A DNA stretch of 43,385 nucleotides, taken from a virus. The position numbers and the translations under genes were made by a program. The DNA lies in the UHGV virus genome UHGV-0217911; one strand, written 5' to 3'. The notes under the pieces are model-generated. The model was given only the letters and a program-made list of their open reading frames with translations. It ran no database searches and had not been told where the DNA came from. Each line of letters starts with the position of its first letter. Position 1 is the first letter of the stretch. This document shows positions 22,246 through 34,346 of the stretch, piece after piece.

Positions 22246-22849
22246 TTAAGAAAATCAATAACTTAGCTTAACTTCTCTAAGAAATTGTATCTTCTGTTAT
22301 CACTTACAAACGCCTATACGTTGTTATGGGCTTTGGTAGTGTAACACGTATGGGCGAGTAGTTCACAGGCTCAACCTCGTAACAAGTTCCTTTGAAGCTG
22401 GAAGACGTGCCACCGTCTCTAAACCTTCTACCAAAACTCTTAGCAAGATGTTCCACACCTGGCGCGGTGTCCAATGATGCTACACGTCGTGAGACGTTGC
22501 AGAGGATAAACAGGCTAAATGATGGGAAGAGTTTTAAGTGCATAGTGGATTAAAGCCCACCTCTTCAAAACCTAACTTGATCGGGAAAGAATCAAGCTCT
22601 AGCACGGTTTCGTCCACCGGAGTACAACGGGTGCCTGATAAGAGAAGAACTGCTAAGACTTCATAGCTTTTGTGAAAAAGCCCTTTTTAGTGGATACGCC
22701 TACGGCGCTTATTTTTTGGTATAACCATCAAAGGCGCTTTATGGCTCCTATTGTCTTGAAAATGTATCTTTACTTGTATTGTGTTTTATGCGTAGCCTTC
22801 CTGTGTAGTATGTAACTTGTTAATTTTCATATGAATACAGAGGCACACG

Positions 22850-23002
22850 ATGAAAAACATTGCAGCTATCAAACGTAATAACCGCAAGATTCACGCTCGT
22901 AAGTTCCTGTCTACGCCAGAAGGAAAAGCCTGGCTAGAGCGTAAACAGCGAGAGAACGAAGAAAGAAAACTCCTTAGTGAGTTGAAATGGCTTAAGGATT
23001 GA
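22850..23002 (+). CDS. Possible small basic protein (50 aa)
   Basis: ATG with GAGG 7 nt upstream; product MKNIAAIKRNNRKIHARKFLSTPEGKAWLERKQRENEERKLLSELKWLKD. Below the ORF-track length cutoff. Confidence 0.3.
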   Translation: MKNIAAIKRNNRKIHARKFLSTPEGKAWLERKQRENEERKLLSELKWLKD

Positions 23003-23567
23003 ATCACCAGTAGGCGCATAACACATCCAGCGATCAAAGATGTGTTTATGCACCTGATAGTGAAATTATTAAAGTCGTTTAGTTAACATCGCCATTGCTT
23101 GAGCAATAATTGCAACAGCGTCCATCTCTTCACTGGAAGCGATGCAAATGCGGTAACTAATAGCCACAACGAATACATCAATAACGAGAAAGTGAATAGT
23201 GTGAAGATGTTTTGAAAGTAAATGCATAACTTCCTCCGGTTTTACGATAGGAAGATTAGAACATGCATTAAATGATGTTACAAGGGTGGTAATTTACCCT
23301 AATAGTCTACTATTCACCTCAATCTACGTCAACCAATATTTGATGTAGATTTAATTTTCTTTTAAAAACAATGTGTTGCAATTTGTTGAATTTTGGGGTT
23401 AGGTTGTTTTTTGAACGTTTTCATCAAGTGTAAAGATACGTTTAGCCTTCATAGTGAGTTCAGTTACTGTCTTTTTCTCTGAAATCGGCGCAGACGTGAT
23501 CAATGTTTAACGCGAAGATCAGCGGCGTCAGGTCCACGCAGCGACAATTCTCAAATATCAGGAGGCA

Positions 23568-24125
23568 TTACGCTTCCTGCTCTTTCTTGATACGTTGCAC
23601 CGTCTGTGTGCTGACACTGAAATCTTTTGCTACGCTCCGAATTGATCCACCATTCGCGAGAGCGGCAACAATTCCCGCTCGATCAATTGCTTTTCCATTA
23701 CCACGTTTTGCTATACGTCCAGCGGCCTTAGCTGCGGCGATCCCCTCACGCTGCCGCTCAAGCATCATTTCACGTTCCATTTGTGCCACTGCTGCAAGCA
23801 CTGTGAGCATCATATTCCCTGCGGGAGAGTTCTTCCCTGTCTTAAAGTCTTCTTTATGGAAATGCACAGACACGCCGCGCTCTGTTAATTGCTCAACCGT
23901 TGCCAGTAGGTCGGCTGTATTACGGCAAAGTCGATCAATGCTGTGAACATGCAAAACATCACCTTCACGCACATAGTTCATCATTGCCTCAAACTGTGGG
24001 CGCTGGGTATTCTTGCCTGACGCTTTATCTTCAAAGACTTTATCAAGAGTTACTCCAGCTAATTGACGGTCTGTGTTTTGTTGGACAGTCGATACCCTAA
24101 TGTATCCAATATTAGCCATTTTCAT
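23568..24125 (-). CDS. Serine recombinase (resolvase/invertase family)
   Basis: 185 aa; N-terminal catalytic domain IGYIRVSTVQQNTDRQ with the active-site serine, and a C-terminal HTH (GGSIRSVAKDFSVSTQTVQRI). Confidence 0.85.
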   Translation of the reverse strand: MKMANIGYIRVSTVQQNTDRQLAGVTLDKVFEDKASGKNTQRPQFEAMMNYVREGDVLHVHSIDRLCRNTADLLATVEQLTERGVSVHFHKEDFKTGKNSPAGNMMLTVLAAVAQMEREMMLERQREGIAAAKAAGRIAKRGNGKAIDRAGIVAALANGGSIRSVAKDFSVSTQTVQRIKKEQEA

Positions 24126-24644
24126 TTTCCTTCTGTGTTGATTTGTGTGTAGTGATTATTGATCGTGTTGATTAGGTGTGTAAAGGACTTTTTTCACTAC
24201 GAAATTCGAAGGTTTTTAGTGTGGTGATTTAGCCTGCTTTATCACTACACGTCTTGCATGAGAATCATGTAGTTACGTTTTGGTAAAATTAGCAAGCTAT
24301 TAAATAGTGTGTTTATTTTGAAAAAATAATTTTTTGTTGCATTAAAGAAACTTGTTCGACAAATGATAGAACGTTTATTGAGCAACAATTTTGCAGTGAT
24401 GCGCTATATGCCGCATTACACAAGGCACAGCGAAAGTGATGTAAAAGTGAAGAAAGCTAACATTGCACTTTTAAGCTACTTTTCATTGAATTTTTACGTA
24501 GGAATTACACAGGGATTAATCATCAATTACATTGAATTTAAGCCTGTTTTAGATGTTTAATTTTGGTAGCAAGAAACACTTTTAGAAGATCATTGCACAG
24601 ATGTTATGTGATAAATGGATGTAACGGTAGGTCACTGTGAACTA

Positions 24645-32174: not shown

Positions 32175-32831
32175 ATGGCTATCAAAGAAAGTCAGATCAA
32201 CAGCACATCTAACATTAATACATCTAACAGCAAGGTTAAATCTGATAACGGATTTGCCATTATATGTAGCAACCTGAATAACGAGAATGCATCAACGATA
32301 GCCAGTTATAAAGCTATTACTTTTGACGCTGTTCCGGCAACTAAGGTTTCACGTTCTGCCGATGTTACATCGTATCCTGTGCAGGATGGTAATGATGTAT
32401 CTGATAATGTCAGGATCAAGAATAATAAACTTATGCTTTCAGGCATTATTACAGAAACACCATTAGCATTACGTGGTGATATGCTATCAAGTGCAGGGGT
32501 GAACGGTAACAGGTGTTCACAGGCTATTGCTTATCTTGATGAAATAATGAATGCCAGACAGCCTATTATTGTAAGCACAGAGCATAAGACGTTTGATAAT
32601 ATGATTCTGACAGGCATTGACTACGAATATAAAACAGAATCAGCTTTACAGTTTGATTTGCAGTTCGAACAGATAAGATTAGTGAGTTATGCAACTACTA
32701 ACGCTATTGCTGTAAAGACCGCATCACCTAAGAGCACAGGCGGACAGGTAAAAAGCCAAGTGCCAACCAATGCAGGAACAGCCAGCACCACTAAAGACAC
32801 CCTTCCGACGTATGACGGAGAAGTGAAATAA
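32175..32831 (+). CDS. Hypothetical protein (218 aa)
   Basis: ORF following the 633-aa gene; Ser/Asn/Thr-rich termini. Confidence 0.55.
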   Translation: MAIKESQINSTSNINTSNSKVKSDNGFAIICSNLNNENASTIASYKAITFDAVPATKVSRSADVTSYPVQDGNDVSDNVRIKNNKLMLSGIITETPLALRGDMLSSAGVNGNRCSQAIAYLDEIMNARQPIIVSTEHKTFDNMILTGIDYEYKTESALQFDLQFEQIRLVSYATTNAIAVKTASPKSTGGQVKSQVPTNAGTASTTKDTLPTYDGEVK

Positions 32832-32905
32832 TCCCTATAAAGAACGATGTAGCGAGATAATCATAAAAGAGGCTACCAATCTATATTGAAGCCTCTTTAT
32901 TACGT

Positions 32906-34270
32906 CTATAGCGTTGTTTTACGCCTTAAATTTGATTTTTTATTGATTGATAAGCCTTTCTCTATTTCAGGGTAGCGTAAAAGCTCAATATATTTTTTAA
33001 GCTCTATTGGAGAAGCTGCATTTTTGCTATATGTGCGGAATGTTTCTGTATTGCCGCGTGTATGGCCCAGGAGAAGGGCGATCCTGTCTTCTGGAATTTG
33101 ATTTCGATCAAGAAGCTGTGCTACTCCGTGTCTCAGAGAATGAAACACCTTCCTTTCTGTTCCCTTTTCCCCTAAAGCCTTTCGTTTAGCTCTTGTAAAT
33201 CTCTGCGTATGCCACGTGGAACGTTTACCATCAGCACGCTCTGTAATGCTGGCGTGATAGAACAAAAAGCCATTGTGAGGCTTTTCACGCAGCGACAACA
33301 CCAACGGAGTGATAAGGCTATGCACAGGCACAAGACGTGCCGCAGCTTTCGTTTTTCCCTGTGTGATTTCAAAACACAGCACACCTTCGATCTCTTTCAC
33401 ATCGTCTATTGTGAGACTTGCTATCTCATTGATCCGCATACCTGTATATAAACCGATAAGACACAAAGCCATCATTTCTTTGTTTTCTGCTGAATTACCG
33501 GAAAATACTTGCAACACCTGCAATAGCTCTTTGTTAGAAAATGCCTCGTAGCTCTCTCTACTTTGTGCCACATCAAGCCTATGCCCTCGCCAGGGGGAGA
33601 GCGCCCTTTCTGGCGCATCGTGGTAACGTGATGAAGCTAATTCCCATAGCTGGGCCATTGGGCTGATATAATTTGCAATTGATTGTTGTGAAAGAGTTTT
33701 TTGCATGTGTTCAATCCAGCCTGTAACAGTGGTGCGGCTTACATCTTGCAATGCAATATCAGGCTTTTTACGGTAGGAGAGAAACATCTCTACCGCTTTT
33801 CTTGCCTTAGCTAAAGTGGCTGGCTTCTTCTTCGTGCTGTTAATTGTCAGGTAGATTTCAAGAATTTTAAGCAATGACGGACACGAAGACGCTGTATCTT
33901 GCATTCTGGTAGCTGTTTTGGCGTATTTAGCCTTACTGCGTAACAGTTCCAGCGTGTTTTCTATTGTGCTGTTTACAGGGGCAACACTCTCCCGTAAGCA
34001 ATGGTATTCATCTGCAATCTGATCACGCTTTCTACGTGCAACACGAAGATTACTTGTGTGCAGACTTCTGACAAACGTCCTTTTTCCTTCAAAAAAGGGC
34101 TGCATATACACAGGCAGCGTGATCCTTAAATAGTAGTTACCGTAAGAATCACAGATTAAGTATTGGTTAGGCTTGTATCTCATAAAATCTCCGGCTAAAG
34201 TGTCGGAGCGTTTGTAATGTGAAAATTGATTGTGACGCATAGAAAATGATGATTTTTCTATAAGATTCAA
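32906..34270 (-). CDS. Tyrosine-type site-specific integrase
   Basis: C-terminal catalytic region with HSLRHGVAQLL ... LLGHTRGNTETFRTYS (R..H..R..Y pattern), adjacent to the 21-bp tRNA-derived repeat. Start codon uncertain (alternatives at 34240 and 34183). Confidence 0.85.
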   Translation of the reverse strand: MNLIEKSSFSMRHNQFSHYKRSDTLAGDFMRYKPNQYLICDSYGNYYLRITLPVYMQPFFEGKRTFVRSLHTSNLRVARRKRDQIADEYHCLRESVAPVNSTIENTLELLRSKAKYAKTATRMQDTASSCPSLLKILEIYLTINSTKKKPATLAKARKAVEMFLSYRKKPDIALQDVSRTTVTGWIEHMQKTLSQQSIANYISPMAQLWELASSRYHDAPERALSPWRGHRLDVAQSRESYEAFSNKELLQVLQVFSGNSAENKEMMALCLIGLYTGMRINEIASLTIDDVKEIEGVLCFEITQGKTKAAARLVPVHSLITPLVLSLREKPHNGFLFYHASITERADGKRSTWHTQRFTRAKRKALGEKGTERKVFHSLRHGVAQLLDRNQIPEDRIALLLGHTRGNTETFRTYSKNAASPIELKKYIELLRYPEIEKGLSINKKSNLRRKTTL

Positions 34271-34325
34271 TCAATTAGTAATGGTCGTAGGTGATGGCAT
34301 TAACACGAGATTAATCGAGTGTTTT

Positions 34326-34346
34326 ACTCCTATTATCGGCACCATT
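34326..34346 (+). repeat. 21-bp direct repeat of the tRNA-Thr 3' end (ACTCCTATTATCGGCACCATT), att core of the second element
   Basis: Identical to 22227-22247. Confidence 0.75.

Follow-up and report, generated by a model that had tools for sequence, protein, structure and literature searches.

To our knowledge, satellites of strictly virulent phages comprise few systems (PLE with ICP1, the PICMIs, and those of Streptomyces), none of them reported in Escherichia coli or its relatives. In the first of these, the ICP1 nuclease Odn copies the RepA_N domain of PLE and cuts the PLE origin at its iterons (PMC8263062). The window analyzed here, UHGV virus genome UHGV-0217911 (the whole stretch of DNA, 43,385 nucleotides [nt]), holds an element integrated at thrW for which PLE, ICP1, and Odn are the closest functional parallel. 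We consider it probable that this element represents an undescribed satellite family of virulent, ~150-kb myophages of the Stephanstirmvirinae (the Phapecoctavirus/phAPEC8 group and Justusliebigvirus). Three independent links to these phages support this interpretation, namely, a tape measure protein (TMP) with a Dit-like protein, a terminus-like site, and putative phage nucleases with Rep-type DNA-binding domains. A literature search returned no prior description of the element or of Stephanstirmvirinae satellites.

The first link lies in the late operon. A first-pass annotation of the window had listed it as a six-gene operon without recognizable products, which proved wrong once PHROG, Pfam, and Foldseek identified decoration, major capsid, tape measure, and Dit-like proteins. 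Its genes are as follows (window coordinates; aa, amino acids; dN/dS, ratio of nonsynonymous to synonymous substitution rates).

28183-28380, plus strand: 65-aa protein encoded at the start of the late operon and conserved among family members (dN/dS 0.23)
28385-28768, plus strand: gpD/SHP-like capsid decoration (cement) protein, 127 aa (AlphaFold2 model and Foldseek)
28783-29814, plus strand: HK97-fold major capsid protein, 343 aa, of the lambda gpE/PF03864 lineage (phrog_29, 1e-4; homologs in other genera with PF03864)
29968-30165, plus strand: 65-aa protein in the position of the small open reading frame (ORF) that precedes the phAPEC8 tape measure gene (assigned by position)
30200-32101, plus strand: TMP homolog, 633 aa (phrog_16051, 1e-71)
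32175-32831, plus strand: Dit-like tail/baseplate protein, 218 aa (PF21821, 5e-28)

Phage matches to the TMP (134 records) were all large myophages, mostly phAPEC8/rV5-type Stephanstirmvirinae of ~150 kb, and nearly all matches to the Dit-like protein (159 records) had the same composition. The Dit-like protein was 61 to 65% identical to homologs of phAPEC8 gp103, while the TMP had 32% identity to phAPEC8 gp104 over aa 197 to 632 (E = 6e-62) and, over aa 1 to 68, 35% identity to the TMP of phage Mt1B1_P17. Genes gp104 and gp103 are adjacent in phAPEC8 and run in the same order as the TMP and Dit-like genes of the element. Upstream, the phAPEC8 pair gp115-gp114 (decoration protein, 132 aa; major head protein, 333 aa) mirrors the 127-aa/343-aa pair, and the two major capsid proteins are colinear at 23% identity. 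The late operon looks like a condensed, selected subset of a phAPEC8-type structural module. The TMP of a Klebsiella element likewise matched Stephanstirmvirinae only. We know of no lysogeny genes in phAPEC8-group phages, and no temperate member of the phAPEC8/Stephanstirmvirinae group turned up in the TMP and Dit homology searches; the element is therefore not simply a prophage of these phages.

The 127-aa protein was assigned from structure alone. Comparison with phAPEC8 gp115 was negative by both pairwise BLASTP and hhalign; its sequence relatives were confined to its own family. The AlphaFold2 model (pLDDT score, 75.5) matched, in Foldseek, the decoration proteins of PhiTE, Bas63, and Sf14 as well as P21 SHP and lambda gpD. 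For the major capsid protein model, the top 27 Foldseek matches in the PDB were all HK97-fold coat proteins (PhiTE, ICP1, Bas63, Sf14, and lambda). Values of dN/dS were 0.18 for the decoration protein and 0.23 for the major capsid protein. The 65-aa protein at 29968 to 30165 had no similarity to phAPEC8 gp105 by BLASTP or hhalign. Pfam and PHROG searches found no terminase, portal, protease, connector, sheath, tube, or baseplate hub among the element ORFs, an NCBIfam scan of the element proteins gave no specific names, and PADLOC models had no meaningful match on the element. With 12.1 kb in total and no autonomous virion or packaging gene set, the element appears to be helper dependent.

The second link is a short stretch of noncoding DNA. 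When the left half of the element was compared by blastn with 50,697 phage records, two regions matched, both of them in phapecoctaviruses. One of these was a site next to the serine recombinase gene, on its 3' side.

23482-23564, plus strand: phage-terminus-like site, 83 nt, candidate packaging/cleavage signal (~81% identity to a phapecoctavirus segment)

The corresponding segment is unannotated in 65 phapecoctavirus records and, in many of them, lies a few hundred bases from the record end. Genomes of Stephanstirmvirinae are reported to end in direct terminal repeats (PMC12695924). In Mt1B1_P17 and WPEC4, which are independent records, these repeats are exact and 328 bp long, and the matching segment spans the left boundary of the repeat, such that phage position 1 (AACGCGAATTTT...) corresponds to window position 23509 (AACGCGAAGATC...). 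The 83-nt site was present in all three fetched E. coli variants sharing the serine recombinase region, and a 28-nt core across the boundary was kept at the same position in the divergent variants L031 and L032. By analogy with cos in P4, the site may be the signal at which a helper terminase would cut and package satellite DNA. Another, weak match to the terminal repeat, 34 nt long (window 26935 to 26968 to repeat positions 271 to 304; E ~1e-3), may be due to chance and was discounted.

The third link concerns replication, for which two features are needed.

24643-24850, plus strand: putative replication origin, with five iterons (24643-24781) followed by an AT-rich stretch (24782-24850)
26320-26880, plus strand: Rep-like initiator with an N-terminal winged helix-turn-helix (wHTH) DNA-binding domain (DBD; aa 1-104) and a C-terminal domain (phrog_270, 1e-8, O-like initiators; HTH_36)

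The iterons are ~23 nt long. The element has five copies of their core, CCCNNACAGAANNNTGTTA, and the remainder of the window has none, even at two mismatches; the stretch that follows them is 85.5% AT. The element thus appears to have its own putative initiator and origin. The Rep C-terminal domain is shuffled among alleles.

The other blastn match, window 26279 to 26631, was 99.2% identical to Mt1B1_P17 and covers the 41 nt upstream of the phage gene gp053 together with its first 104 codons. The gp053 protein (328 aa) has three parts: a wHTH that is 100% identical to Rep aa 1 to 104, a second Rep-type wHTH that is 75% identical to the Rep DBD of E. coli variant L006, and a C-terminal endonuclease-like domain that matched phrog_681 ("endonuclease," 2e-18) and had 37 to 47% identity to annotated GIY-YIG/homing endonucleases. 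In the nuclease of the Justusliebigvirus "inny" (inny_184), the first DBD is 88% identical to a third Rep allele, that of a plasmid-borne copy of the element described below, and the second is as in gp053. A BI-EHEC-type nuclease follows the linker of yet another Rep allele. Full-length versions were found in six phage records only. In Phapecoctavirus (NC_052662.1, 20245-21708) and Justusliebigvirus (MN850601.1, 119446-120549) alike, these genes come first in a cluster of rightward early genes, at a divergent promoter region; most related phages, phAPEC8 and ESCO5 among them, lack the nuclease.

The iteron motif was not found in the complete Mt1B1_P17 genome (151,202 nt) at up to two mismatches, so the phage lacks a target for the DBD it has borrowed, and no phage record matched the iteron region by BLAST. 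Variants of the element are 89 to 97% identical in the recombinase region and in the 1.1-kb noncoding stretch beyond the iterons, whereas their iteron block and Rep DBD are exchanged jointly. The five window-type iterons are all retained in variants L031 and L032, which have the same DBD (93%) but a different Rep C terminus and a divergent capsid module; elements whose DBD differs lack these iterons and carry repeats of their own. The iterons therefore co-vary with the DBD alone and not with the Rep C terminus or the capsid module. Considering that gp053 and inny_184 share both the architecture and the patchy distribution of Odn, they are putative origin-directed nucleases.

The thrW island is a unit of 12,099 nt (22248 to 34346) with a 21-nt exact direct repeat at both ends.

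22227-22247, no strand: attL core, 21-nt direct repeat ACTCCTATTATCGGCACCATT
34326-34346, no strand: attR core, 21-nt direct repeat ACTCCTATTATCGGCACCATT

The attL repeat sits inside a 46-nt fragment of the thrW 3' end (22200 to 22245) that is identical to the annotated tRNA-Thr 3' end elsewhere in E. coli, and the attR repeat consists of 19 tRNA nt (34326 to 34344) plus TT. The 46-nt fragment doubles as the right junction of an adjoining P22-like prophage, and ARAGORN found no intact tRNA in the window. Prophage-free E. coli genomes have the gene order proA, intact thrW, the element (100% identical), a truncated P4-type integrase, MarR, and vat; in the window, the P22-like prophage separates the element from thrW, which explains the tRNA fragment. 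Strains FDAARGOS_1261 and D8 carry the identical element. Of the 5,426 complete E. coli genomes, 49 contained at least 80% of the block.

One copy of the element (L022; NZ_CP126938.1, locus 11104-23052) was carried by an F-type plasmid of 166 kb that lacks the vat island. It sits in a sopC centromere repeat, CCCACTCATATTGTYGGTCTG, which resembles the thrW core, and both of its junctions are hybrid: ...CCCACTCATATT|ATCGGCACCATC... at one and ...TTTTACTCCTATT|GTTAGTCTG... at the other, with the crossover within ACTC-TATT. Such hybrid junctions are what an integrase leaves behind when it recombines at a secondary att site, and they fix the element ends exactly at the 21-nt repeat. As judged from these comparisons, the element is a discrete integrative unit that moves as a whole. 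One IS3-family element has inserted three times into the plasmid copy (once each in the tape measure gene, the Dit-like gene, and the conserved noncoding region), and this copy is probably inactivated.

Related elements occupy tRNA-Gly and other sites in Klebsiella, Citrobacter, Kosakonia, and additional E. coli lineages. They share a gene order of small recombinase (minus strand), ~2 kb of noncoding DNA, regulator/Rep, small ORF, decoration protein, major capsid protein, small ORF, TMP, Dit-like or ~155-aa protein, and DUF6538 integrase (minus strand). Protein identity across the family ranged from 26 to 72%, and dN/dS was ~0.2 wherever dS was unsaturated (in comparison with variant L006). 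The decoration protein family comprised more than 100 clusters from seven genera, every one annotated as hypothetical. The capsid module was present in 242 of the 5,426 complete E. coli genomes, O104:H4 included, with up to three copies per genome, and the Rep allele of the window was present in 127. As far as these alignments reach, the architecture is compact, kept by selection, and conserved across at least seven genera. The tRNA-Gly variants (L003 to L005 and L024 to L026, from Klebsiella, Citrobacter, Kosakonia, and E. coli) adjoin a LysM/M23 peptidase gene and have a tyrosine recombinase of ~186 to 205 aa in place of the serine recombinase. Their left-end cargo is variable (for example, a Dam methylase in Kosakonia), and some carry an unrelated ~155-aa protein in place of the Dit-like gene.

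A life cycle for such a satellite can be proposed. Phage infection would derepress the early operon (the 60-aa protein p60, the 56-aa protein p56, Rep, and the 102-aa protein p102), the element would excise, and Rep would fire the iteron origin. Coat and decoration proteins from the late operon could then form a small shell, sized for 12 kb, on the helper portal and scaffold, and the satellite TMP and Dit-like protein would join the helper tail-initiation complex. The helper terminase would recognize the terminus-like site at ~23509 and package unit-length satellite DNA. Helper yield would drop, and the bacterial population would be protected. Phages might counter with Odn-like origin-directed nucleases, from which satellites could escape through swaps of the Rep-DBD/iteron module. 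With somewhat more confidence than doubt, we suggest that the element is the founding member of a widespread, unnamed satellite family of Enterobacteriaceae with its own decorated shell, its own TMP and Dit-like protein to capture tail initiation, a mimic of the terminal-repeat boundary for packaging, and a PLE/Odn-like arms race against two-DBD nucleases of dual specificity; the combination would be a strategy without known precedent.

Several observations weigh against a satellite of Stephanstirmvirinae. Induction, excision, replication, packaging, and interference are all deduced from sequence alone. The coat is only ~23% identical to that of the putative helper, coat and decoration proteins are without a close phage relative, and co-assembly with the helper portal and scaffold is uncertain given this distance; the model of the major capsid protein also had low confidence (pLDDT, 55). 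The nuclease domain of gp053 fell below threshold in Pfam (PF13455 [MUG113], 21.2 bits versus a cutoff of 22.3 bits; PF10544 [T5orf172], E = 0.037) and had no match among PDB sequences, and the sequences are compatible with transfer of the DBD from element to phage or from phage to element. The terminus-like site was not found, against the available phages, in the variants with a small tyrosine recombinase (Klebsiella, Citrobacter, Kosakonia, and E. coli L026); the left half of the Klebsiella element matched the phage collection at tRNA-Gly only, and the terminus mimic was thus not replicated there. The excised form was sought through a predicted attP junction containing GATTAATCGAGTGTTTTACTCCTATTATCGGCACCATTAAGAAAATCAAT. 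The longer attP pattern had no match in metagenome contigs, and in viral contigs the sole match came from another thrW prophage, whose attR has GTGTTTT in common with it. Relatives of the major capsid protein in IMG/VR were prophage calls from isolate genomes, which are uninformative on encapsidation.

Of the competing explanations, the one that survives best, and that we still regard as unlikely, is a nontransmissible defense island: a phage-responsive integrative replicon whose decoy coat, decoration, TMP, and Dit-like proteins poison phage assembly, with no transfer in particles. It would accommodate the failure to find a packaged or excised form in the contig searches, and the structural homologs, being a subset, could be dominant-negative subunits; the phage nucleases, moreover, are evidence of conflict and not of transfer. 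Harder to explain without encapsidation are a copy of the terminal-repeat boundary and a complete coat/decoration pair under purifying selection. PADLOC yielded no match, and near-identical modules spread over lineages and a plasmid imply efficient horizontal transfer, yet conjugation genes are absent.

Coincidental mosaicism is less probable again. Here the locus would be a plasmid-like island with recombined phage genes, and the T5orf172 proteins would be ordinary homing endonucleases or regulators with a captured wHTH, without any parasitism. Genes for T5orf172 proteins are indeed common homing endonucleases at phage recombination boundaries, and the presence of the nuclease in just six phage records fits this explanation. 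Chance recombination does not readily bring three independent types of similarity to converge on one phage subfamily, however, nor give nucleases of two phage genera a first DBD that matches different Rep alleles at 88 to 100%; the iteron motif was also missing from the one complete phage genome scanned, and the iteron region had no phage match by BLAST. Finally, a nonfunctional, decayed remnant of a temperate rV5/Felix-O1-like relative that has lost most of its genes, as the integrase, capsid, and tail genes in phage-like order might suggest, is very improbable, given a minimal gene set and order kept at 26 to 72% protein identity over genera and sites with dN/dS of ~0.2 and intact ORFs, a recent site-specific integration into a plasmid, a lack of pseudogenes or fragments of terminase, portal, sheath, and tube, and searches in which no temperate member of the phage group appeared.

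The preferred reading, a helper-dependent satellite, also agrees with much of what the first-pass annotation had proposed. It had described direct repeats of the tRNA-Thr 3' end (46 bp on the left and 21 bp on the right), now confirmed as a 21-nt exact repeat; a tyrosine integrase at one end (Phage_integrase, 3e-17; DUF6538) and a serine recombinase (Resolvase, 1e-38), both verified; five iterons followed by an AT-rich stretch, which were recovered at 24643 to 24781 (iterons) and 24782 to 24850 (85.5% AT); a Rep-like wHTH, borne out by replication-initiator PHROGs (1e-8); a promoter ahead of the small-protein/wHTH module, where a promoter-like site occurs at 25743 to 25771; and about a third of the element without a convincing ORF, which compares with a noncoding share of 36%. 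The RHH assignment in that module, which concerns the 56-aa protein, did not gain confirmation. Its suggestion of an integrated plasmid-like replicon or phage satellite, as opposed to a decayed prophage, is supported, with the satellite alternative favored by the autonomous unit, the Rep/iteron module, the conserved architecture, and the three phage links. It had also named this block as the most promising part of the window for an undescribed system, although the helper relationship, central to the present finding, lay outside its view. Whether the block moves as a unit was answered by the plasmid copy with hybrid att junctions. The contrary outcome that it had named, ordinary decayed structural genes without a replication function in a block that is never mobile, fails on both counts.

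The remaining features of the element are the recombinases, the early operon, and the noncoding DNA.

22850-23227, both strands: two small ORFs, 50 aa (plus) and 52 aa (minus), hypothetical in RefSeq and without a Pfam match
23568-24125, minus strand: small serine recombinase of the resolvase/invertase type with a helix-turn-helix, 185 aa (Resolvase PF00239, 1e-38)
24794-25891, plus strand: conserved noncoding region, 1.1 kb (89 to 95% identity among E. coli variants with differing flanking modules)
25743-25771, plus strand: promoter-like site
25892-26266, plus strand: early-operon genes for two small proteins (60 aa and 56 aa) that are presumed regulators
26880-27188, plus strand: 102-aa protein, last gene of the early operon
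27189-28182, plus strand: second long noncoding region, with a promoter-like site, two hairpins with a T-run, and an exact TTGTGCAATAACCT
27201-27230, plus strand: promoter-like site, TTTGCA-18-TATAAT
32906-34183, minus strand: tyrosine integrase with DUF6538, SAM-like, and catalytic domains (Phage_integrase, 3e-17)

The serine recombinase is possibly involved in multimer or concatemer resolution, and a 100% identical protein is encoded by E. coli variant L006; in comparison with the same variant, p60 had a dN/dS of 0.18. The serine recombinase gene lies, together with the terminus-like site, between the arms of an 18-nt inverted repeat (22351 to 22368 and 24635 to 24652; 83% complementary) that borders on the first iteron. 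The repeat could have arisen by chance or could delimit an invertible segment; the best-matching genomes showed no copy in which this segment is inverted.

Exact copies of the 14-mer TTGTGCAATAACCT lie at 25126 and, ahead of the late operon, at 27709; similar sequences are found at 25248 and 25265, and these motifs may be a shared operator. A strong hairpin with a T-run at ~27462 to 27500 follows the promoter-like site at 27201 to 27230 by ~230 nt, and the segment from ~27201 to 27500 could be a candidate small RNA. A second hairpin with a T-run (~28105 to 28160) directly precedes the start of the late operon, which would suggest antitermination control. An Rfam scan of the whole element gave a single match, to a snoRNA, that was below threshold and attributed to chance.

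To the left of the element, window positions 1 to 22245 look like the late region of a P22-like prophage by gene size and order (terminase, portal, scaffold, coat, ejection proteins, and tailspike), and the tailspike (19837 to 21915) has P22 Head_binding and beta-helix domains. This prophage was considered as a helper and rejected; the structural genes and DNA of the element do not match it, and the element occurs without it elsewhere. It ends at the 46-nt thrW fragment, so that at least three elements lie in tandem at thrW, namely, the prophage, the satellite, and the vat island. The region to the right (34499 to 40052) is the known vat island, its own integrase decayed. The truncated P4-type integrase there retains the Arm DNA-binding domain only (112 aa), and it is accompanied by two further genes.

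35272-35796, minus strand: MarR-family regulator
35922-40052, minus strand: vat, vacuolating autotransporter toxin gene

Phages of the phAPEC8 group (phAPEC8/ESCO5-type) are frequent picks for therapy cocktails. If our interpretation is correct, these phages would face a specific barrier in an island that is common in extraintestinal pathogenic, avian pathogenic, and O104:H4-type strains, that at least 4% of complete E. coli genomes carry, and whose products are currently listed as "hypothetical proteins"; the pairing of Rep allele with phage nuclease allele could become a practical marker for predicting the phage-host outcome. It would also offer an E. coli model for the arms race between a satellite and a virulent phage, with a second, independent origin of Odn-type nucleases, in this case of dual specificity; it would make hijacking of tail initiation by a satellite with TMP and Dit directly testable; and it would explain the spread among genera of a 12-kb island without conjugation genes.

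By their defining gene sets, PLE, cf-PICIs, P4-like satellites, and classical PICI each exclude the element as we read it. AlpA, Pri-Rep primase, and small-terminase/Rpp-type genes, which characterize classical PICI, were not found in any element ORF. P4-like satellites resemble it in size (~11 to 12 kb), in integration at tRNA genes of E. coli through a tyrosine integrase, in having their own replication (putative in the element), in carrying a copy of the helper packaging/terminus site (cos in P4, a candidate site in the element), and presumably in a smaller capsid. In contrast to them, the element has no homologs of Sid, Psu, Delta, or the alpha primase (Pfam/PHROG) and encodes its own coat instead of an external scaffold; its helper would be a virulent phage with direct terminal repeats and not a temperate cos phage, a P2-type cos is absent, and the phage DNA matches are to phapecoctaviruses only. 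The cf-PICIs are likewise integrative satellites of Enterobacteria, ~12 to 15 kb long, with their own HK97-fold major capsid protein and with helper tails. However, their head module is complete (small terminase, portal, protease/scaffold, and head-tail adaptors), they have no tail genes, and their helpers are temperate, whereas the element has only the major capsid and decoration proteins for the head, plus TMP and Dit homologs and a putative mimic of a helper terminus.

The only other satellites reported with a tape measure are the EPIPs of Mycolicibacterium (bioRxiv 10.64898/2025.12.02.691453) and, through a proposed TMP-like protein, PLE11. The EPIPs also encode a capsid protein and have altered tails (bioRxiv 10.64898/2025.12.02.691453), but they belong to a different phylum, use a serine integrase, rely on a prophage as helper, and include head-tail adaptors and a small terminase among their genes, and neither a Dit homolog nor a Rep/iteron module nor a counter-nuclease is reported for them; a Dit homolog in a satellite has no earlier report. 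PICMIs of Vibrionaceae and Mulch/Flayer of Streptomyces are satellites of virulent phages as well (PMC10803314, PMC10690885). Neither has a sequence relationship to the element, PICMIs are without any capsid or tail genes, and Mulch/Flayer are nonintegrating or differently organized.

Differences from PLE are also evident. No gene-level homology was detected; the element has a tyrosine integrase and a resolvase-type serine recombinase of 185 aa, compared to the large serine recombinase of PLE, and an O/DnaD-like wHTH initiator, compared to RepA_N. Coat and decoration proteins come from the element's own genes, in contrast to the remodeling of the ICP1 coat by PLE through TcaP, and the phage nucleases putatively directed against the element carry two tandem DBDs in a host/helper setting of Enterobacteriaceae and Stephanstirmvirinae. 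What the two would have in common is a virulent myophage as helper, a large noncoding region containing the origin, a replicon of modular build whose iterons co-vary with the initiator DBD (PMC8263062), and a chimeric helper nuclease, combining a satellite-Rep-like DBD with T5orf172 (a candidate domain in gp053), that is found in some phage isolates only (PMC8263062). These comparisons are consistent with the element being, as we think likely, a new family in an already known category, the phage satellites; by gene content it resembles the cf-PICIs in having its own coat and P4 in carrying a candidate helper terminus site.

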